Below are positions 32,700 through 48,200 of a stretch of DNA of 64,000 bases, one piece after another (position 1 is the stretch's first letter; every line of letters begins with the position of its first letter). Origin of the DNA: Eledone cirrhosa (lineage: Eukaryota); the NCBI GenBank assembly GCA_964016885.1, contig OZ024762.1:11904001-11968000 (forward strand), in the 5' to 3' direction. The notes below the pieces were generated by a model. That model was not told where the DNA came from. It saw only the letters and a list, made by a program, of their open reading frames with translations, and made no database searches. The translations under genes were made by a program, and so were the position numbers.

Positions 32700-35600
32700 T
32701 AAACCAAATGTGTGTGTGTGTGTGGAACAAACACAGGCAGACAGACACATAAACAGCATCCAGGTGATAAAATAAATTATAAGTACACACCTGAAAGTCT
32801 TTTTCTCGTTGAATATCACTGGAAAACCGCGTAAGAAACGCAGCACAAAGGTAAAGGTGGAAATCTGCAAAACCATTTATTTCTGCCTGGAAATATATTT
32901 TCAAAAACAGAAATTAATTCTAATAAAATATAATAATAATAATAATAATAATAATGAAATTATTGTGTATAGTGCTCAGGTGCACTAAAATATATTACAT
33001 GCCTGGGTGAAGAAATACAGAGTTATACACAGAGGCAGTTGCAAGGTTTTAACCCTTTAGTTACCGACCCGGCCAAAACCAGCTCTGGTTCTATGAAATA
33101 AAGTCACCCATTTTAAAGGTTTCCAATTTCAATTAAAATCTTCCAACATAATTTTATATAAGAACCCTACATTAAGTTACTATCTTAATAATTAATAATT
33201 TTAGTAAAGAACCTCGAGTGGATCTCAAATCAGTGAATCTTACAACTTGGTTGTTGAAGGACAAAGATGAGTGGAGGGATGCTTTGCTGGAAAGGACCTA
33301 TCCAGCCCATGCAAGCATGGAAGAAGGGGCATAAAACAGTGATGATGATGACAATGATGTTGATATGATTGGCTACAAGAATGGATTACATCGTGGGTAA
33401 ATATGATGAGAATTGTCCAGGGATATTGTCCAGAAATATTGCCCAGGGATGTTGTCCAGAGATATTGTCCAGAAGTATTGTCCAGAGATATTGCCTAGAG
33501 GTATTGTCCAGAGATATTGTCCAGAGGTATTATCAACAGATATTGTCCAGAGGTATTGTCCAGAGGTATTGACCAGAGGTATTGTCCAGCGGTATTGTCC
33601 AGAAGTATTTCCAGAGGTATTATCAACAGATATTACCCAGAGGTATTGCCCAGAGGTATTGTCCAGAAAGGTTCTGCTATCTTACCTGATAGGTGTCCCA
33701 CAAACGTATAGTACAGCGCAAAGGAATTTCTCTCATCAGCAGGTTGTTCATCCATCGGAAGGCAAATTGGAGAAATTCTACATTATGTTTTTCTAAATGT
33801 TTATATAATGGAACTGAAAGACAAAGTAATGTTTTTACTGTCAGTAGTAATAATAATGGTTTCTTCTATAGGCACAAGGCCAGTAATTTGGGGGAGGGGG
33901 AAGTCGATTAAATCAACCCGTAAGGATGAAAGGCAAAGCTAACCTCGGCGGGATTTGAACTCAGAATGGCAAGGGACGTAACTTTATGCTATGAAGCATG
34001 GTGTCCGACGCTCTACCGATTCTACCACTCTGCCAGTAGCAATAATAATAATTGTTTCTATTTTAGGCACAAGGCCAGCAATTACCCAGTGCATTACTGG
34101 TACTTTATTTTATCGACCCCGTAAGGATGAAAGGCAAAGTCAAGCTCGGCGGGATTTGAACTCAGATCGTAAAGGGACGTAACTATGCTGGAAAGCATGG
34201 CGTCCGACCCTCTACCGATACTGCCACAGTAGCAATAATAATAATAATGGTCTGATTGGCACCCCCACACCCCACCCCTCCCACCCCAGCCTCAAAGTTT
34301 GCCCACCCTCCACCCTTCACACCTCACGCTCAAAACTTACTCACACACCACCCCACCCCACCTAAAAACAGTCCCACACACCACCACCCCTCAAAACATC
34401 CCCACATCCCACCCCACCAGCCCCACTCTACTTACCATCTATTCGTTTCACTAACTCTTTCAAAGCGTTCACCTTCATCTGTATGCCAGGTTGAGCAAAG
34501 GTATAGTTATCCTGTATACCATCCAGTAACCTAGTGGTGCACCAAAAGCTGTCGGCCTCGATTATATTTAATGTGTCTGCCGATAATTTACTTAAGTCAC
34601 AGTTCTCCACTTCGACATCTGAACAGAAATAAATAAAGAATGGACAGAATGCATTAAAATCCCTATAGTGGTAGTGTTGGTGCCATGATAAAATACACCC
34701 AGTACACTCTGTAAAGTGGTAGTGTTGGTGGTGCCATGATAAAATACACCCAGTACACTCTGTAAAGTGGTAGTGTTGGTGCCATGATAAAATACACTCA
34801 GTACACTCTGTAATGTGGTAGTGTTGGTGGCATGATAAAATACACCCAGTACACTCTGTAAAGTGGTAGTGTTGGTGGTGCCATGATAAAATACACTCAG
34901 TACACTCTGTAATATGGTAGTGTTGGTGCCATGATAAAATACACCCAGTACACTCTGTAAAGTGGTAGTGTTGGTGCCATGATAAAATACACCCAGTACA
35001 CTCTGTAATATGGTAGTGTTGGTTCCATGATAAAATACACCCAGTACACTCTGTAAAGTGGTAGTGTTGGTGCCATGATAAAATACACTCAGTACACTCT
35101 GTAAAGTGATAGTGTTGGTGCCATGATAAAATACACTCAGTATACTCTAAAGTGATATTGCTGATGTCACGATATAATACAAAACAAGAAGTGTACCTGT
35201 AATTCAAAGGAACAGCCTTGTCAAACACTGTGGCATGCTGAATCTCCATGTGAACAACATTAAAGGTGTCTATGGAATGCTCAGCCACTTACACATTAAT
35301 TCCCTGAGCAGGCTGTTCAGTTAATCAAACAACTGGAACACACTCCTCTTTGTAATTGGTGGAGATCCAAATTATTCCATCCCCGCAGAAGTTACTGTCC
35401 CCCAACATCAGTGAAGATATAATCAATAATACATACCATTACTAATATACTCGGAGAGATAGACCACAAAAAATGGGGTTACAAGGTCGTTTATTCCTTG
35501 GACATAGCCACTGGCTGGATGGCGGATGGCCCATATATACAAGATTCTTTCAAATATCTGAAACAAAGAAACAAAATACAAATATAAATATATATGTTGT

Positions 35601-38600
35601 ATGTATATATATATCTATTTAAGGCTGTATACAGCTATGGTGCGACCACACTTAGAATTTGCATTTGCATTTGCATCACCAGTCTGGAACCCCTATCTTG
35701 CTCAGAACATTGACCGCCTGGAAACTGTTCAGAGACGTGCAACCAAGCGAATACCCTCCATCAGGCATCTACCATACTCTGAGCGCCTTGCTTCCCTGGG
35801 CATGGATTCATTGAAGCTCCGACGCCTGGCAACTGACTTGGTAAACACCCACAAAATTGTTAACCATGTTGCCAACAACCCTGAGTACCTTTTTGATTTC
35901 CATGTGTCTAACACACGTGGACATGCCCACAAAGTAAGAAAACAGCACAGTTCCCATGACTTTCGGAAACATTTTTTCACGCTCAGAGTTGCTGAAGCAT
36001 GGAACAAACTACCTGCATCAGTTGTTAGCTGTCGAGACACTGCATCCTTTAAGGCCTCCATGCTTCCCGAGATCCACCAACACTACAGCTAACACATACA
36101 AACATGTACTTCCCTGGCATTTGTGTATTATTCTATGTACTATATTGACGAGTTGTAGTGCACCTGAGCACTTTACACAATAATTTCATTATTATATATA
36201 TATATATATCGACAGTCGATTGACTTTCGTCAAATCAAACCAAAGAAACAATGCTTCCATTGGTCTTTCCAATTGCTAATACTATCTATCAGTCGCAACT
36301 CCAGGTAGAAGGAGCAACGTGAAATAAAGTGTCTTGCTCAAGGACATAACGCATCGCCCGGTCCAGGAATCGAACTCACAACCTCACGATTGCAAATCTA
36401 ATTATCTAACCAGTCAGCCACGCACCTTCACATTATATATATATATATATATATATAGAGATATGTCCCAAGGCTCTGATACCATCAACACTATAAACAC
36501 AGAGCTGGCATATCTAAGAACTGACTAACTGCCTGTTGAGGTCATAGCCATTCAATGGCTATCATCAAAATATATATAGCAGTAAATAAAGGATTATGAG
36601 TTCATGCAATTGACTTATGTTTCATCACTATATATATATATTATATTTAAAGGTTAAACAAGGTTCAATGAATAAATAAAAGAATGAGTTTTACAATTGT
36701 CATATCTAATTCACTACCATGACTGAATCTTAAACATCTACTATGTCAGGGTATGTCATGCATCATCTTATTTTATCTGATGAGGACGTACTGTTGAAGT
36801 TAGCTCAGTACCTCTGAAATATGTATAATAAAATATACTTGATCACACGAATGTCTATTTTTGTTAATATTTTGAATTAATATATATATATATAAGGAAA
36901 ATAAATTGAAAATGCAACTGGAGTCTTTTTTAAAATATTTATTTCTTTACTTTACCGGTTTCCATCTCGGTTTTACTTTGGATAATCATAAGAACTGTGA
37001 AACCGGTAAAGTAAATAAATAAATATTCTTAAAAAGACTCCAGTTGCATTTTCAATTTATTTTCCTTATAGTTTTACCTGTGTGGGACATTTTAAAAAAA
37101 TGTTACTTTCTTATTTATATATATACATATATATATATATATATTATATTATATGTTCATACAGGGAACAAAGGCTCTACCAAAGGTTTCAAAGCCCAAA
37201 TTTGACCATATCTCCAGAAAATAAGAGGTATCAAAATAGTGACCTCTCTTCAGGCTGCTAATATGAGTTTATTATCAGTACATATATATAAACCTGGATG
37301 GAATCAGTTTGAAACTGGTTAGACCATTACTCAATAGAGTACTCAATACTTGGAGTAGTAGAGTCTGGCTATATTATAAAGAGTCAGGACTCGACGGCTG
37401 AGATCTTGTTTCAACAGCTAGTTCCAAACCCAACCCAAACCAAGGATTAAAATGCTTAGCAACAGGGTAGACACCCAAACAAGGATGCTGTAAACCATCA
37501 AACCATGCAGTTGTTGAAAAGAAACAAAAAAAAACAAAAAAAAAATCCATGCACCCCCCACCCCCACATCAGACTTTGAACAAAATAATGTCTGAAATTT
37601 TAACAAGATATAACTCTTAGTTTCGCACTAATTCTATTCCAATCCATTTTACATCTTTCCATTCCATTCCATTCCAGTTGAACCAAAAGCCATCAGAAAA
37701 TAATTTTTTTTAAATTTATTAGAATTTTTAAATTCTATTTTTAGTTTTATTTTTGGTGGGGGTTTGTGGTGAAACCAAGCAGTGGATTAAGTCTACCACC
37801 CAAGTTTATCATCCAGGTGGACCACCCAAGTCTACCACCCAAGTGGACCACAGTGGGAAGAACCACAACAAATACCAAAATATATTTTCTCCAATGCTCT
37901 AACAATATCACCAATCTTCTGCCCTGGGCTGGGACTTTCTTTTATTGACCCACCAAAAGTGACAAAAGGTTGCAGTTGACCTCGGTGGGATTTCAATAGT
38001 ATATATAGAATAATGTAAATGTTAAAGTGCTAATGTACCTGAAAAAGGAAAAGTTGGTTTCAGTGGAATTTGAAACGAGAAGGCAACGAGCCAGATCATA
38101 TAACGCAGCAAAGCTTCCCATCTGACACTTGAACAATTCCACAAACCCACCACAACCCAGTACTTTACTGTTGAGTCATTTAATTCAACCCTGAAAAGGA
38201 CGAAAATCAAAGTTGATCTCGGCAGGATTTGAACTCAGAGCTCAGTAAACTGGAACAAATAACTGAGGCATCTGTTCCGATACCAATCAGGATCCTGGAA
38301 CAAATGACAAGATTCCAGACCTCATTTGCTTACCGAGTGAGGTAGAACTCGTCAGATTGGACCAAGGAATCAATGTTTCCATTGGTCATTTTAATTGCTG
38401 ATACTATCTACTGGTCACAACTCCGATGCCAATTTGCAGTCTAAATAAAAGTACATGTAAAATTGGTTGACAGTTTAAAATAATTCGAGTTGATAAAATA
38501 GATTGAAGACAAGGTGAATAATGTTGGCTAAAACCCCCAAAATTAGCAGCATTGAAACAGGAAGTAGTTTAGGAAGCGAAGTGAATAGAAAGCACATCAA

Positions 38601-41600
38601 GTTAGATTTTTTTTAAATAATCATTTCTTACATAGGCACATCATCATCATTTAATAATTTAGCATTTGAACCGGCTATATCCAGTCAGAATTCCCTCAAC
38701 TCTTTCTGTTCAAACCAGCCATAACTGGCCACTCATATTTATGTTAAGGTATTGTTCTCAAAATAAATAAAATCAAAATCTCATAGATTCAATATTATGT
38801 GAGATAAAGCCTTTACTGTGAAAATACAATAGTATATATAGAGTAATGTAAAGCCTTTACTGTGAAAATACAATAGTATATATAGAGTAATGTAAAGCCT
38901 TTACTGTGAAAATACAATAGTATATATAGAGTAATGTAAAGCCTTTACTGTGAAAATACAATAGTATATATAGAGTAATGTAAAGCCTTTACTGTGAAAA
39001 TATAATAGTATATATAGAGTAATGTGAATGCTAAAGGGTTTAATGTTCAATTTTCCATGTTAGCAAGTGTTGGACAGGTTGTCACTGACTAAGTAAGTAC
39101 TTAATATGAGTTACTGACCTCTCAAATGGGCCTGAGACAGGATTGATGCTTATATACATTCCAGTACTCAGTTCTCAAATTTCATTGAAGAGTACAAACA
39201 ATTCTATAGCCCTCTACCCCAGTATATGACTGGCTACACCAGTGGCACATCTACAGTGGCACCCCGAGACTGGCTGTACCAGTGGCACATGTATTGTGGT
39301 ACCCCAAAAACTGGCTGCACCAGTGGCACCCCAAGACTGACTGCACCAATTGCGTGATTATGATGATGGTGATGATGGCGATGATGCGGCCCAACAGATT
39401 GAGCTGAAAAATCAATGTTTTGTGTAATTTCAATTTTGGTCAGTGTCTTCTTCCAATAAAGATTCCTATTTACACTAGTGACTGTCAATAAAAAAAAAAA
39501 TTTAAAAATGGAAGAAACATTTTTTATTTATTTCCTGGTGTTAAAATTTTCATCACCCTGTCACCAACCTTGTCACTGACACCAACCTTGTCACAACATA
39601 GTTTTACTGTAACTAAATATAAAGTGATGTTAACAGTTTCCATGATTTTTGAATTTTTAAATTGACCCATCCATGAACTAATTGCTTTAGTTTCAATTGC
39701 ACAAGTCTCAGATCAAGTCACTTGCCAGACATGTACAACTGTAGCTAAAATGACTCTTCCATGATATAGTTACTTTAGTTTCAACACAGTCTCAGATCAA
39801 GTCACTTGCCAGACATGTACAACTGTAGCTAAAATGACTCTTCCATGATATAGTTACTTTAGTTTCAACAGAGTCTCAGATCAAGTCACTTGCCAGACAT
39901 GTACAACTGTAGCTAAAATGACTCTTCCATGATATAGTTACTTTAGTTTCAACACAGTCTCAGATCAAGTCATTTGCCAGACATGTACAATTGCCAAATA
40001 AAAGAGGGAGAGAAAGGGGGTAGATAAATAAAGGGACTGGTGAAGATCTTCATCAATTTTCAGAGTTGCAGAGCTGGACATGATGGGTGGAAAGGAAGGA
40101 TGAATTGAAAGGGTGAATTTAACAATCCATCATGAAATGAAACAATTGTTTAAAACAACAAAACAATGACAACAACAATGAGAGAAAGAGAGAAAGGGGT
40201 GTTGATGGCTGCAAAGTGGACTAACAGATACTCACTTCCTGCACGGCATTCTGCTGGAACAAGTGTGCAACAGAAGTCATTCGAGGGATATCTTTAAGAA
40301 TCTGCAAGAACAGGGAGCAGTTGTTTTTGAAGAACACAGCAGCAATCTATGTACTAACCCTCAAAAGAAGAGCTACAGTGCTAGAGTCAGTGAGGAAGAG
40401 GAAAGTCAACATGTATCAGACAAACCAGATTAGAACAAAACTATACTTTCAAGTTGTTGTTGTTGTTGTTAGGTGGAAGAATGCAGCATTTTTTAAGGTT
40501 TTCTTACTATTTTTATATTTTTCATCTAAGGATCATTTAAAAAAATATTTTGCATTCATTTCGCAATTTGACACTAAAAGGGGTTAAAATTGAAAGAAAA
40601 AGAAAAGAGCCAATTGTGGTGTTGGACCAAGGAAACAATGCTCCCCTTGGTCTTCCAATTGACGATACTATCTGCTGGTTACAACTCCTAGCAGAAGAAA
40701 TGAGGGGATTGTGGTATTGGACCAAGGAAACAATGCTCCCCTTGGTCTTCCAATTGACGATACTATCTGCTGGTTACAACTCCTAGCAGAAGAAATGAGG
40801 GGATTGTGGTATTGGACCAAGGAAACAATGCAACCTTTGGTCTTTCCATTGACGATACTATCTTCATGTCATAAATTCTGGCAGAAGAAAGGAGAGGATT
40901 AGCAGATTGGACCAAGGAAACAATGTTCCCATTGATCTTTCTATTGACAATACTATCTGCTGGTGACAATTGCTGGTAGAAGGAGGTGGGATTTGAACTC
41001 AGAACACGCACAGAGAGATCAGATACTGCAAAGCATTCGTCTTGTCTGATTCTTTAACAGTTCTGCTGATCTATCCCCCCCTTTTGGGTGGGTACGTTAT
41101 CAACCTCAATAAAAGTATGAAAGGAAAAGTTGACCTCAACCGGTTTTGCAAAATAAAAAAAAAAAAGATGGGGGTGGGGTGGTAATTCATTTTTAATCAT
41201 AAATTGATCCAAAGTTTAGACAAAAGCTATATCTGGCTTCTCAAAAATGTTAACTTTCCTCTTGAATTCTGAAAATAAAAACATATACATACGTATATAT
41301 ACATTATTTATATGTACATATATAGATATATATAGATTAGTTATAAAGTGAGAACAACAAAGATTAATAAAACCCAACAAAAACACCAAAATACACCAAA
41401 CATTGTACAGCCACATTAATAAATAGCATATGAACTAGCAAGGGAAGGGGTCCTTAAGACATTCCAAGGTGCAGCATGCTAGAAAGGAACCAAAGGACAC
41501 AGCGCAAAAGATATTATCGAGCAGATATAGTTTGGCCAGTCGAGCAACAGAATGCAGCAATTTGTTTCTTTTACTTCTACCAAGTTCTACCAAATTCCAC

Positions 41601-42183
41601 CTGAGCAGCATTCATGCACAACTGAGATTTCCAATGACTAAAAACTATAAGAAAAGTTGTCTTTTTGTTTGTTACTATTAGTCATGGAGGGAGGGACAGT
41701 GCCCTGTTCACAGCCTCCAAAACAGGTGGGAGAGAAGGAGGCAAGCATCCTTAAACTGAAGACATGAGCAGAAGGCCTGCAACAAAAGAGTGGATTCTAG
41801 TAAATACACACGAGAGCCGGGTGTTGGAGTTAAACTCATCATTTGAGTAAGTCTAACACAAGAGGACGACAAAGCAGGATTGGGAAATGTGTGTGTAGTG
41901 TGTGTGTGTGTGTTTGTGTTTGTAAATGTGTGTGTACATATGTAGTGTGTGATATAAGTAACAAGTTCCAATTTTAAGTATTTAAGCTACAAACGTCCTG
42001 GAAATTCAAACTTGTTTTGTCAAGATTTAGACAATATACACCACCACCACCATCACCATCACCATCATTTGCTGGCATGGGTTAGACAGGACTTTTTGAA
42101 GTAATGTTGTACTATAACTCTTTTAGTTGTTTCTTATGACACACAAGGATACAATGTAACTGCTCTAAATCAGACACACAAGC

Positions 42184-42248
<65 letters not shown>

Positions 42249-45200
42249 GTCGGGTTGCAGGTAAATCTTGCCTTGGGCAGATCGACGGAGAAACATGTGT
42301 AATATGTTAATAAATCTGATATGATGCAACATTGATTCCTCGTTCTTTATAATAAATGTGTGTGTGTGTCTGTGTGTGCATGCGTGTGTGTGTGTGTGTG
42401 TGTGTGTGCGTGCGTGAGAGTCCCAGGTTCAAACAGAGGTAACCACAGAGAATATACAACAAAGTTAATATAGAAATGGTTTCTACAGGACTAGAACTGC
42501 TTCATTCAATGCCAGTTGGCTTTCCTGATGATTTCCTTCGAATGAAACAGTTCCAGTCGTGTAGAAGCCATTTCTATATTGAATGTGTTATATATATATA
42601 ATGCTTAAAGGGCTCGAGTTTGACCACCAAGCAGTAGATTCTATAATAATATCTACACTACTTTCCTTAAGTATGAAATACTAAGTTGTATAGTGGTCTT
42701 ACAGGCCTTAACTAGTAACATCTCATCTATTTACATACATCAGGGTTTCACAAACTTTTTCAAATGTGGAACCCTTCTTGGTTCAGAAACTTTAGGGGGA
42801 ACCCCAAAGTCTAATACTGTTATATGGTCATAATATAAATATACTCCTTTACCTTTTTTTTTTTATGGAACCCCAGACATTCATTTGCAGAACCCTTGGA
42901 TTCCACAGATCCCACTTTGGGAATCACTGACCTACATAAAGACTATAGAGTGGAGCTAAAGTTCACTAGGGTACAGGCCTTCATACTGAAAACATCTCGG
43001 TCTGTTCCCTTGTCTTTGGATTGCTTTGCATTAACAATGTAACTTTATTAGATAAGATGTAGTCTGATGATGTAGCATTACTGGTTGTGAGATTGAAGCA
43101 TCATGTAGTCATGAACGCCAATGAAATATGTATTACGGGTTTATGAATAAAGGAATTTTGAACATCTAAATTGGACTTTCGCAAATAACCTTATTTTATC
43201 TATATAAACGGTTGTGCTTCTCTGCAGAATTGGGTAGATCTATGGTCGAAGGATATTTTTCCAAAGTGCTGCATTTTGTTGGAACTGGGCAACATTTCAG
43301 GCGTTGGGCCATACTTACTTCCTGAACTACCTTCAATTGGAACAGGGGTACTAAAGGGTTCATTCGGGGGATGTCTATGTGGATCTGAAATCAGGAAACA
43401 TCGAGAAGAAAGAAAGGAAAAAAAAAAAAAGAAAAAGGAAAATAAAATAAACACACAAACAAAACAATGAACCTTAATTCCAAGGATGCAGCATATAGGT
43501 AATGAAAGGTGTAAAATACACAGGTGCAAAATATACAGGTGATGTAATACTATGAATAATTATTGGAGCATAAAATAGAATGACTGTTAACTTATAACCT
43601 TAGCTATAGTATACATGCAATGATGGTGATGATGATGATGATGATGAAGAAGATGGCGATGATTACAAGGATGATGATGAAGATGATGGTGATAATGGTT
43701 TCTGATTTAGGCACCAGGCTAGCAAATTTGGGCGGGGGTTGGTGAAAGAGTTGATTAAATCAACCCCAGTACATGACTGGTACTTTATTTTATTAAGCCC
43801 CAAAAGGATCAAAGGCAATAATTGTGTCTATTTTAGGCACAAGGCCAACAATTTATGTGGGGAGAGGGGAAGTCAATTAGACTGACCCCAGCACATTACT
43901 GGTACTTTATTTTATCGACCCTGGAAGGACGAAAGGCAAAGCTGACCCCAGGAGGATTTAAACTGAGAATGTAGTTACTCCAGGTAGAGCTGCTACTTCT
44001 CCAAAGTGAGAGATCACAGCTCTGATGCTATGGACATGTGGTTAGAATGTCTCAGGAAAGAATCACTGGACAGATTTCACAGGCAAAACCAACTGGCAGG
44101 AGACCCAGGGGGTAGACCTTGAGCTTCTGCTAATCTACCATCAACAACAGCAACAACAAACAATAACGAGCATTGTTAACGAACATGGTCAGAAATTTGA
44201 GAAGGAGATGCAACACTGGTAGTGGTGGTGGTGGTGGTGGTGGTGGTGGTGTGGTCATAGTGATGATGATGGGGGTGGTGGTGGTGGCAGTGGTGGTGGT
44301 GGTGTGGTCATAGTGATGATGATGGTGGTGGTGGCAGTGGTGGTGGTATGGTCATGGTGGTGGTGGTGGTGGTGTGGTCATAGTGATGATGATGATGGTG
44401 GTGGTGGCAGTGGTGGTGTGGTCATAGTGATGATGATGATGGTGGTGGTGGCAGTGGTGGTGGTATGGTCATGGTGGTGGTGGTGTGGTCATAGTGATGA
44501 TGATGATGGTGGTGGTGGCAGTGGTGCTGGTATGGTCATGGTGGTGGTGGTGGTGGTGGTGGTGGTGTGGTCATAGTGATGATGATGATGGTGGTGGTGG
44601 TGGCAGTGGTGGTGGTATGGTCATGGTGGTGGTGGTGTGGTCATAGTGATGATGATGATGGTGGTGGTGGCAGTGGTGCTGGTATGGTCATGGTGGTGGT
44701 GGTGGTGGTGGTGGTGTGGTCATAGTGATGATGATGATGGTGGTGGTGGCAGTGGTGGTGGTATGGTCATGGTGGTGGTGGTGGTGGTGTGGTCATAGTG
44801 ATGATGATGATGATGATGATGGTGGTGGCAGTGGTGGTGGTATGGTCATGGTGATGGGGGTAACAGTGATGATGGCCATGCTGATCGCAGTGATAGTCAT
44901 GATGGTGATGAGGGTCATGATGATGATGATAACAAAGATAAAAACTATATAAATAACAATAAGTGACAAAAAAAAACAAAACAAAACAATAAAAAGACCC
45001 AGCCAAAAAGAAATAGACAACAACAACAACAATTTGACAAGCGGGGTTCTCTCGGGTCCCAAATAATAGGGTGGGTGCTGGAATAAGTGGGGTTCTCTCG
45101 GGTCCTAAATAATAGGGTGGGTGCTGGAATAAGTGGGGATTAGGGTAAAAAATCACATTTTTCCAGGTTGTCTCTGTTGAATATTTTTAAAAAACCAGAA

Positions 45201-48200
45201 TTAGTCGTTTAGTTTACATATTGAGACCCCCCAAGCCATCATATTTATTTTATAACATACTGAGACCTTCCAACCTATTTATTTTATAACATATGGGATT
45301 TCTAGTAATGTATTTTTTGTCATGTATAATATAATAGAATAGAATTAAAATTTAGCTTCAAGCAGAGCTGTATACAGATATGTATTGGAATTTCGTATTT
45401 CTAAAGAAATACGGTATGTTTATAAATAAACATTTAGAAAGCCATAGCTATGCAAAAACACTGCCAGCTATCGCCCTCTGGTGGTGTCCAGCAGAAGCAA
45501 GGGGGACAATCGTCGATGCCATTCGAACTGAACTGGTTCTCGTCAGGATGATACCCACTCTCTTACAACTGCTGGACTTTGAAAATAGGTGAGAATATAT
45601 AGTTTTCTCATCTGTGTTAATGAGGTGATTAATCTCATTTGCATATGAAGCTGCATAAATTATTGAGCGGGTGGGGAGGGGGGGGGCATTATTTGAGACC
45701 CGACAGTAATTGAACGTGACAAATACAAAAATAATTATTTATACAATTTCCAAATAAAAGTGACATTCATAAAGTATAGTAGTTTCTTAACCCTTTAAAC
45801 ACTAATCTGCATGGTTGCTTGATCTGCTAGAAATAGGGTGTGATTTGAGGGACCCTTGGCTCCTGACTTAATCCTTTAGATACTACTCCATATGGCTGAA
45901 TGGCCTGCTACAAATAGGGTGTCATTTGAGGGACACTTGTCTCCTGACTTAACCCTTTAAATACCAACCTGCTCAAAACTGCCACCATTCTATGACAAAC
46001 CTCTTGTCTTAAGAGGCCCCAACACTCATGTCAGTTGTCATGTCCTTAGCATAACAGAAGAGCTTTCCCAACTGTGTTTGGCAGGTTATCTATGGCTTGA
46101 TACCCTTCCTATCAGCCACACTAGGGGGGTCATCACATCTATATCACTGTGGAACAGTCCTCTGACTGTGTTTGGCAGGTTATCTATGGCTTGATACCCT
46201 TCCTATCAGCCACACTAGGGAGGTCATCACATCTATATCACTGTGGAACAGTCCTCTGACTGTGTTTGGCAGGTTATCTATGGCTTGATACCCTTCCTAT
46301 CACCAACCACTTTACACAAGTGTACTGAGTGATTGTTTATTGTATAGATCACTAACACTAAAGAGGTTGTCATGGCTACAGCACTGCTGAAGAATCCCTC
46401 GGGCTCTTTGGCAAATTTTCTACAGCTTGATGCCACTCCTATCACCAACAACTTTACAGAGTGTACAGGGTGCATTTATCATATAAATCACCAACACTAG
46501 GAAAGTTGTCATGTCTACAGCACTGCTAAAGAGTCCTCCCGACCTTTTATATTTATCTAAAAACATTCCATCGTAATTATATGTAAGAACCTTTGTCAAG
46601 TTATGTTCCAAACACCAACTTAATAATTGTTTCTACTTTTGACACAAGGCCAGCAATTACCCCAGTGCATTACTGGTACTTTATTTTATCGACCCCCGTA
46701 AGGATGACAGGCAAAGTTAACCTCGGCAGGATTTGAACACAGAACACAAAGGGCCATAACTCTGTGCTGCAAAGCATGGTGTCTGATGTTCTACCGATTC
46801 TGCCTAATAATGAGGAAGTTACTTATATTACTAAATCCCATCAAATTTTCATTATTTAAAAAAATCTATTTGAAAATCATATGCAGCGTCTCCCATTAGA
46901 AATATAACAAAAGGATTAAAAAAAAAAAAAAGGGTCAGTGTTTGCTTTTCTTTCAGTTTTTTAGAGGGGTTTGGCATGTGTGGATTGTTTAAATCCCAAA
47001 CTGACCTGTCGAAACGTATCTTGATGTTCAACATGGTGCCGTGTACCATAATAATGTTCAACAAAACTAAAATATTCTTTCCGTTTCCTTTCCAAAGTTG
47101 GTTGCCTCCGATCATAACTAGCAGGAAGATAACCCTGGAATAAGACAAGAAAACCTTGAAAATATAATTGTGTCAGGAGTTAATTCAAATGTTTATAGTA
47201 TCTTTACTAAGAGACAGATTGTTGTGAAAATGTGCAGTATTAGAGTATAAAGAGTTTAATACATAATTGTTTCTACGTTCGGCACAAGGCCAGCAATTAC
47301 CCAGTGCATTACTGGTACTTTATTTTATCGACCCCGTAAGGATGAAAGGCAAAGTCAACCTCGGCGGGATTTGAACTCAGATCGTAAAGGGACGTAACTA
47401 TGCTGGAAAGCATGGCGTCCGGCCCTCTACCGATACTGCCAATTCACCGCCAAGAGTTTAATACATAATGGGATACAGTCACAGGGCTATTTTGTACTTT
47501 TCTAGAATGTCTTGCTAATATGGTTTCATATGGTTTGTTAATTCAATTATTTAGGGTATCTTTACTAAGAGACAGATTGTTGTGAAAATTTGCTGTATTA
47601 AAGTAAAGACTTTCATTTTTAATGTAATGCAATCATAGTTCTGTTTTGTACTTTTCTAGAATGTCTTGTTAATTTAAAGGTTTGCAGTATCTTTGCTAGT
47701 GAACAGATTGTGAAAATTGGTAGTGTTATAGTAAAAACTTCAATTTTTAATGTGATGCAATCATAGTGCTGTTTTGTACTTTTGTAAAATGTCTCGTTAA
47801 TGTGATATCATGCTATGCAAGACAATAATAATAATGAAAATTATTGTGTACAGTGCTCAGGTGCACTACAACTAAACAAATATGCATGTAAAGTACATAA
47901 AATAATGTACAAATGTTAGGAAAGTGAACAGTGTATGAGTCATGATATATACACACATACATGTGTGTATATTATATATATATATATATATAATTTGTGT
48001 ACAGTGCTCAGGTGCACTACAACTCATCAAAGGTGTATGTATAGTACATAAAATAATGCACAAATGTCAGGAAAATGAACAGTGTTCGAGTCATGATATA
48101 CAGACAGACACACACATGCGTGCGTATTTACGGAGGGGGGATATCAGGTGTAGTGTTGGCGAACTTCGGGAAGCATGGAGGTTTTAAAGGATGCAGTGTC

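Follow-up and report, generated by a model that had tools for sequence, protein, structure and literature searches.

A candidate competing RNA-pairing switch between twin exons of octopus TBC1D22

Twin exons and the choice between them

TBC1D22, a membrane-traffic regulator (Rab GAP) gene, lies on the minus strand of the 64,000-nt stretch of the octopus Eledone cirrhosa genome analysed here (the window), and includes two 66-nt exons, A and B, separated by an intron of 3017 nt. Because A and B are both 66 nt long, the reading frame cannot enforce the choice between them; the question raised by this locus is whether complementary segments within the intervening intron could do so instead. The exons concerned are:

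47006..47134, minus strand: constitutive TBC1D22 exon upstream of A and B, 43 codons (translation and AG/GT ends)
43319..43384, minus strand: exon A, 66 nt, bearing an IxxDxxR motif
40236..40301, minus strand: exon B, a tandem paralogue of A, likewise 66 nt long and bearing IxxDxxR; mollusc-wide
35437..35557 (lower end approximate), minus strand: constitutive exon downstream of A and B

The upstream constitutive exon is 95% identical to Octopus bimaculoides TBC1D22B, and the exon A form is common to crabs and human TBC1D22B. Exons A and B align to one another with a score of 48, unequalled in 2000 shuffles, and both A-only and B-only TBC1D22 models are present in 11 named mollusc species; among 98 proteins there are also nine A+B models and three that skip both, these being annotation models and not read counts. 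On such sequence comparisons, A and B are real alternative exons and tandem paralogues. Choosing A or B changes the catalytic segment of this Rab GAP that carries the arginine finger, and the pair is retained in cephalopods, gastropods and bivalves; our literature search for the A/B exon pair of TBC1D22 found no paper describing it.

Two long-range stems at the ends of the A-B intron

Two pairs of complementary segments occur within the A-B intron, one towards each end:

43258..43292, minus strand: D helix I arm, an exchangeable docking segment complementary to S2a and S1, and more weakly to S2b and S3 (S1, S2b and S3 are listed below)
43211..43251, minus strand: D helix II arm, an anchor that keeps its S2a pairing whichever state is forced on the predicted folds; single-copy
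41532..41622, minus strand: S2a, the distal arm, with 41574-41622 facing helix II and 41532-41564 facing helix I; single-copy
41623..43210, no strand: the 1588-nt loop enclosed by D:S2a, of which interspersed repeats and microsatellites make up 70-82% (hand union of repeat searches)
41231..41263, minus strand: E, 5' arm of the second long-range stem (17 + 9 bp)
40396..40430, minus strand: F, the matching 3' arm, whose end is 94 nt short of the exon B acceptor; single-copy

The inverted match between D (43211-43292) and S2a (41532-41622), 1.6 kb apart, scores 54 on alignment; 300 dinucleotide shuffles average 27.7, the best of them reaching 42. Folded in the minus-strand sense, with both arms run against shuffled controls as the initial annotation had proposed, it forms ~60 predicted pairs at -70.2 kcal/mol (z -7.5; 0/300 shuffles that low). 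The three blocks described there (18/20, 21/25, and gagaagca/gagcagca at 7/8) were all recovered 1.6 kb apart, as were both G-U pairs within ttctgc/ttccac and, at 43276:41550, the A-C mismatch. Other particulars fared less well. Stability is not specific to the minus strand (-70.2 versus -70.8 kcal/mol on the plus strand, with three G-U pairs versus one). Stable pairing begins 26-30 nt past the exon A donor and not ~18 nt past its GT, and the suggested continuation across the donor and on into exon A through 41452-41505 is no better than chance (duplex z -0.19, 121/300; alignment equalled by 752/1000 shuffles); 41452-41505 is instead a direct look-alike of an element upstream of exon A. The description of the surroundings as otherwise unique holds for both arms but not for the loop, and the edge of one repeat comes to within 5 nt of arm D.

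A match of the arms to a high-copy repeat family would have spoken against any specific role, and in the 3.0-Gb genome D and S2a match only themselves, while an adjoining repeat used as positive control returns 248 candidates. We thus rejected the arms as inverted copies of a repeat family, with the proviso that very old or low-copy families could escape the search; nine Rfam matches were obtained, all under the gathering score and none on the arms. Two further measures were also discarded. Raw duplex energy is a poor test, as G-U-rich windows match the score of S2a (rank 4/1597), whose best energy partner is at 45441, inside a repeat. A depletion of transitions between the arms (1/19 versus 77/170 in control pairs; DNA alignment, p 4e-4) was set aside because it becomes 4/9 when counted in the RNA register with the central loop left out. 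Bases left unpaired in D:S2a are enriched in A when read on the transcribed strand (25 A and 10 U, versus a U-rich background, p 2e-4).

The second stem, E:F, likewise single-copy, closes the opposite end of the intron from D:S2a and is present in all folds containing both arms. It is predicted at -39.5 kcal/mol (z -6.7, 0/1000) and is 9 kcal/mol more stable on the transcribed strand than on the plus strand (-30.8). Repeats occupy the loops of both stems and spare the arms.

Might such pairs simply be neutral debris, derived from an old local inverted duplication or from the decayed ends of a low-copy element, with a spacer that later filled with repeats and an RNA that may fold or be edited to no purpose? 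Among windows of this genome not recognised as repeats, 34/1565 (in 12/86 stretches) have an inverted partner scoring at least 54 and 56/1565 one scoring at least 40, so that neutral pairs are not rare; the equal stability of D:S2a on either strand also suits such an origin. Against it, among 27 splice-site-proximal windows from nine exons, many of the control windows being repeat-masked, long-range partners were found at three only (scores 54, 40 and 34), at both ends of the sole alternative intron, and the remaining 24 score 20-29; the element windows were picked after the sequence had been seen. Nor would a simple inverted copy be expected to carry an A-rich loop on both sides, or to be accompanied by a third complementary element, S1, upstream of exon A. 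We regard neutral debris as unlikely, though it keeps a substantial share of our doubt.

A rival partner for D, and what the folds predict

Beyond S2a, several short elements around the two exons resemble one another or pair with D:

43466..43494, minus strand: S1, 82-110 nt upstream of exon A, over one candidate branch point; single-copy; predicted rival partner of D helix I
41453..41482, minus strand: S2b, a direct look-alike of S1 (17 nt near-exact, at these two places only) and a weak D partner
40476..40494, minus strand: S3, a fourth UGCUGCA element, ~180 nt upstream of exon B; weak D partner (-13.8 kcal/mol, z -2.0, 19/500)
41374..41416, minus strand: S5, G-U-rich, a weak and doubtful predicted partner of S1 once D is occupied

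The same bases of D, 43267-43290, are predicted to pair with both S1 and S2a. The S1:D pairing (-25.4 kcal/mol, z -4.2; 1/500 shuffles as low) would loop out exon A, and S1 is transcribed 1.7 kb earlier than S2a. D:S2b is weaker (z -2.3, 9/500), and the S1-S2b direct repeat is marginal in its own null (40/1000). UGCUGCA occurs four times in the 3.0 kb around exons A and B and six times in the 64-kb strand, with 0.16 expected; none of 160 sampled strands attains four copies.

Complementarity between the segments, their occurrence as single copies, where they lie and the existence of alternative exons are all observed; from these we infer helix formation in cells, a direction for each effect and a kinetic competition. 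In the nascent RNA, D helix I would meet S1 first, looping out exon A and covering the candidate branch point, so that B would be favoured. Some 1.7 kb later S2a would emerge, anchor on helix II and take the place of S1 on helix I, so that exon A would become available again, while E:F would bring the acceptor of exon B closer to mid-intron. This proposal gives no account of what restrains B during use of A.

Predicted folds agree with parts of this scheme. S1:D has a probability of 1.0 in the nascent 370-500-nt fold, falling to 0.04-0.78 in longer nascent folds and to ~0 at equilibrium, and D:S2a reaches ~1.0 in 2.2-kb folds at both 15 and 37 C. Forcing S1:D leaves helix II paired, at a cost of 11 kcal/mol in a repeat-excised construct; across the whole 3.55-kb region the difference is below 1 kcal/mol in either direction. 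The unconstrained minimum-energy fold of that region lacks D:S2a, a microsatellite duplex winning by 1.3 kcal/mol. Once D:S2a is in place, the predicted partner of S1 is S5 (probability 0.83-0.95 across three folds, yet rank 8/187 among partners, z -2.8), a pairing that would put exon A back into a loop, and the candidate branch point gains no accessibility (unpaired 0.10-0.25 with D:S2a formed versus 0.17-0.47). Both results count against the proposed direction of the switch. For exon B, no stem that would loop it out was found: pairing of S2b with the sequence following B gives z -0.3, and the top 25 helices include, across B, only G/C runs or matches of 10-12 bp such as shuffled sequence also yields.

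A second alternative assigns the stems a purely structural role, D:S2a and E:F acting as clamps that fold away repeats and bring the 3017-nt intron to ~400 effective nt, with splicing efficiency or spacing affected and proteins deciding between A and B. Both stems are strong, their loops are repeat-filled, D:S2a prevails at equilibrium in the 2.2-kb folds and A+B models exist in relatives; UGCAUG at 43619 and 41618, together with UGCU clusters, could serve as protein sites, which we take to be of RBFOX and MBNL type. Clamps would, however, leave unexplained the D-complementary core common to S1, S2b and S3, and 400 effective nt far exceeds the steric limit of ~50 nt. We think this improbable.

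An exon-mimic decoy deserves mention, in which D would be an intronic mimic of exon B and S2a would choose the exon by pairing with one or the other. The D helix I arm resembles the 3' half of exon B (21/27 aligned positions; 10/2000 shuffles pairwise, 44/300 gene-wide), so that S2a would be able to pair with either; its predicted 11-bp pairing with exon B has -24.4 kcal/mol (z -2.2, 15/500). Were the spliceosome to commit to the A donor and cover D, freed S2a would mask exon B; otherwise D would soak up S2a and leave exon B open. If true, temperature could tune exon choice, as could editing at the A-C mismatch, but we give the decoy little credence.

The initial annotation had also offered the duplex as an editing-complementary sequence guiding ADAR recoding, here of exon A or B. 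A ~60-bp imperfect duplex with an A-C mismatch, such as D:S2a, is a plausible ADAR substrate, and S2a is predicted to pair with exon B as above. The intronic editing-complementary sequence of GRIA2 Q/R is likewise an imperfect long-range duplex adjoining an exon; the difference is that here exon A lies outside the duplex, and a recoding guide for exon A is unsupported because the duplex does not reach it. A weak point against recoding is the exon A peptide, identical in all 11 cephalopod sequences bearing the exon; TBC1D22 is also absent from one squid editing supplement (eLife), although full editing tables may lie outside that file. RNA-DNA differences in exon A were absent from the 40 contig rows listed of 57 for run X4, with exon A thinly covered and arm D uncovered. 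Runs from other species (X5, X12, X13) gave no match over 42620-43620, a result that does not argue for the sequence being absent there. Recoding seems to us very unlikely.

The splicing-switch reading, also raised initially, is plausible: besides the alternative exons, the two stems, S1 upstream of A, the UGCUGCA cluster, the A-rich unpaired bases and the repeat-free arms favour it. Against it stand the commonness of inverted pairs (34/1565), the 1.2 kb between S2a and exon B, and the A+B and skip models in relatives. The arms are single-copy complementary segments that may well belong to an ATE1-like competing-pairing switch biasing A/B choice, a model we hold in roughly even balance. Should the pairing prove functional, molluscs would join the groups in which RNA structure controls alternative exons, here in a compact, mutable form, with arms surviving while loops inflate with repeats; the locus would then also show directly whether temperature, elongation rate or ADAR tunes exon choice in octopus.

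Comparison with known pairing systems

Of 26 loci obtained in a metagenome scan, 25 have no intron following the exon; the one that does (L013) has neither S1/D-like pairing nor an exon B within 880 nt, and the same pattern had 0 matches in genome and viral contig collections.

Ivanov and Pervouchine (PMC6071210) model docking-site/selector systems as arising by duplication of one stem arm. The present locus similarly combines an exon duplication origin with several similar elements (S1, S2b, S2a, S3) complementary to one site, but that shared site, D, is within the internal intron, and their paper finds no excess of internal-internal intron pairing. In Drosophila serpent exons 4.1/4.2 (Yue et al., PMC4691838), pairing of an upstream element with sequence beyond the first exon would enclose that exon in a loop and shift use to the second, as S1:D or S1:S5 would do here; serpent differs in the downstream docking site looping out the second exon, of which we found no counterpart at exon B.

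The closest likeness is to human ATE1 exons 7a/7b. There, as described by Kalinina et al. (PMC7797038), R3 in the intervening intron is complementary to R1 upstream and to R4 later, and the elements are conserved and experimentally tested. R4 is immediately upstream of 7b and masks its acceptor region, whereas S2a is 1.2 kb from exon B and the nearer S3 (180 nt) pairs weakly, leaving no downstream competitor on the second acceptor region. R3R4 is a short helix, D:S2a one of ~60 bp with a fixed anchor helix; and the second module lies here within the A-B intron, not across exon B. In both genes, alternative tandem paralogous exons flank an internal element (D, like R3) complementary on the same bases to one upstream (S1, like R1) and one downstream (S2a, like R4), by prediction in our case, and both have look-alike selectors and a second independent module (PMC7797038).

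Alternative catalytic exons of TBC1D22

The host gene is TBC1D22, on the minus strand of an octopod genome of 3.0 Gb; an Octopus bimaculoides protein matches one exon at 95% identity, and the relatives with a solved structure are human TBC1D22B/A and yeast Gyp1. Two look-alike exons, A and B, lie between constitutive exons.

Exons around the A/B pair (window positions)
47134-47006, minus strand: constitutive exon on one side of the pair
43384-43319, minus strand: exon A, 66 nt, AG/GT ends, IxxDxxR motif
40301-40236, minus strand: exon B, 66 nt, AG/GT ends, IxxDxxR motif
Edge at 35557, minus strand: constitutive exon on the other side

Judged by annotated protein models, A and B are genuine alternatives. 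Among 98 proteins classified by exon (three Gigantopelta rows were assigned by eye), 11 named species have both A-only and B-only models: three species each of Octopus and Haliotis, plus Pomacea, Aplysia, Gigantopelta, Biomphalaria and Physella. Bivalve models carry B in four genera and A in two, and crab models carry A only. Because nine mollusc models contain both exons and three contain neither, exclusion may be leaky, these being annotations and not read counts. A second variant of the catalytic exon, differing in sequence and length (19-20 codons), is present in the annelid Owenia (P0025, P0027), where one model places it ahead of exon A, and in the nemertean Lineus (P0030, P0031); the exon may have been duplicated independently in these lineages. 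Metagenome loci L003-L028, except L013, have no intron after the catalytic exon, so a duplicated A/B pair is impossible there, and some of them read IQKD instead of IHID.

A predicted long-range duplex in the A-B intron

The initial annotation proposed that an arm following the exon A donor pairs with a distal arm to control A/B choice, ADAR editing or both; as delimited here, the arms are D (43211-43292; helix I 43258-43292, helix II 43211-43251) and S2a (41532-41622). All of its complementary blocks were located, and the inverted match scores 54 (maximum of 42 in 300 shuffles). The predicted duplex (-70.2 kcal/mol, z -7.5) comprises two helices of ~27 and ~30 bp around a 10-by-9 loop, A-rich on both sides. 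Its supposed strand-specific stability did not hold, the other strand being equally stable (-70.8 kcal/mol), and the suggested extension across exon A was at chance level. We consider it very unlikely that the duplex guides ADAR recoding.

Each arm is single-copy by DNA and pattern searches of the genome, in which a neighbouring repeat served as the positive control. The intervening loop is 70-82% repeat (a hand union of several searches, the lower figure leaving out one stretch backed by three weak matches) and includes a short hairpin-shaped, MITE-like element of very high copy (42452-42595; 3764 candidates). Just past S2a and immediately ahead of the element S2b (41453-41482), a minus-strand pyrimidine tract ending UAG (41479-41510) resembles an acceptor site, cryptic or decoy; no homology to exons A/B is seen in the reading frame following it.

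The background comparison covered 0.86 Mb in 86 stretches, 80 of them sampled and six taken from the window. It held 1565 windows that were not identified as repeat; 34 of these, spread over 12 stretches, had an inverted partner scoring at least 54 within 3 kb. With a chance of ~2% per window, the duplex alone therefore does not show function, and that it is neutral debris is an appreciable, if minority, possibility. Among 27 splice-site windows, long-range partners occurred at the ends of the A-B intron only, many control windows being repeat-masked. Inverted repeats were also seen elsewhere: one sampled stretch (L084:7141-9996) holds a near-perfect repeat with arms >1 kb, and the intron after exon B has perfect 36-nt arms (36895-36930 and 37031-37066), with further copies in the window.

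Predicted competing pairings and a possible switch

S1 (43466-43494), upstream of exon A, has complementarity to D helix I (-25.4 kcal/mol, z -4.2), and this pairing encloses exon A; its probability is 1.0 in nascent folds of 370-500 nt and 0.04-0.78 in longer ones. The segment 41452-41505 is a direct look-alike of S1, with which it shares 17 nt found at these two places only, their alignment being marginal (40/1000 in a null test). The 3.0 kb surrounding exons A/B contain four copies of a UGCUGCA core, opposite a single UGCAGCA in D. Minus-strand UGCAUG hexamers at 43619, upstream of S1, and 41618, at the start of S2a, are candidate RBFOX-type motifs, and UGCU clusters within the S elements are candidate MBNL-type ones. 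Metagenome locus L013 (774-900) is a mollusc-like exon A with donor; neither S1/D-like pairing nor exon B was found in the 880 nt examined.

A second predicted stem joins E (41231-41263) to F (40396-40430), which ends 94 nt before exon B. It has 17 + 9 bp (-39.5 kcal/mol, z -6.7) and is more stable on the transcribed strand than on the opposite one. F is single-copy in a genome search and E probably so, its search being crowded by microsatellite with 40 of 176 candidates scored.

We give about even credence to a model in which kinetic competition between these pairings biases A/B choice. S1:D would pair first, hiding exon A and favouring exon B; S2a would next dock on helix II and capture helix I, reopening exon A, and E:F would shorten the path to exon B. 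D:S2a is predicted with a probability of ~1.0 at both 15 and 37 C in folds of 2.2 kb, and likewise in a repeat-excised construct; there, S1:D can be imposed for 11 kcal/mol without breaking helix II. Across the full 3.55-kb region, a length at which folds are unreliable, the free fold (-867.4) contains neither pairing, and forcing D:S2a (-866.1) or S1:D (-866.8) costs ~1 kcal/mol. Once D:S2a has formed, the predicted partner of S1 is S5 (41374-41416), a pairing that again encloses exon A, and the candidate branch point is predicted to stay closed; both count against the proposed direction of the switch. That D:S2a and E:F are instead structural clamps is unlikely.

Exon B has a 3' half similar in sequence to helix I, and S2a is predicted to pair with exon B (-24.4 kcal/mol, z -2.2). 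We therefore keep as a reading, albeit a quite improbable one, that helix I is a decoy mimicking exon B, S2a being able to pair with either; forcing S2a onto exon B brings S1:D along, at a cost of 16 kcal/mol.

Comparison with known systems

No description of the exon pair or the duplex was found in the literature on TBC1D22 or on mutually exclusive splicing in cephalopods and molluscs, mostly in papers available without subscription, and the accessible portion of PMC8042237 adds nothing. Flanking complementary pairs can loop out exons, according to the available part of PMC11802352. No srp-like downstream stem, of the kind in the portion consulted of PMC4691838, was found around exon B. The proposed competing-pairing switch has its closest counterpart in geometry in ATE1, where, in the part of PMC7797038 available, R1R3 pairing represses use of the first exon, which R3R4 promotes: R1/R3/R4 are arranged as S1/D/S2a are here. 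Unlike in ATE1, S2a leaves the acceptor of exon B uncovered, and for this reason we do not file the locus as an ATE1-type member.
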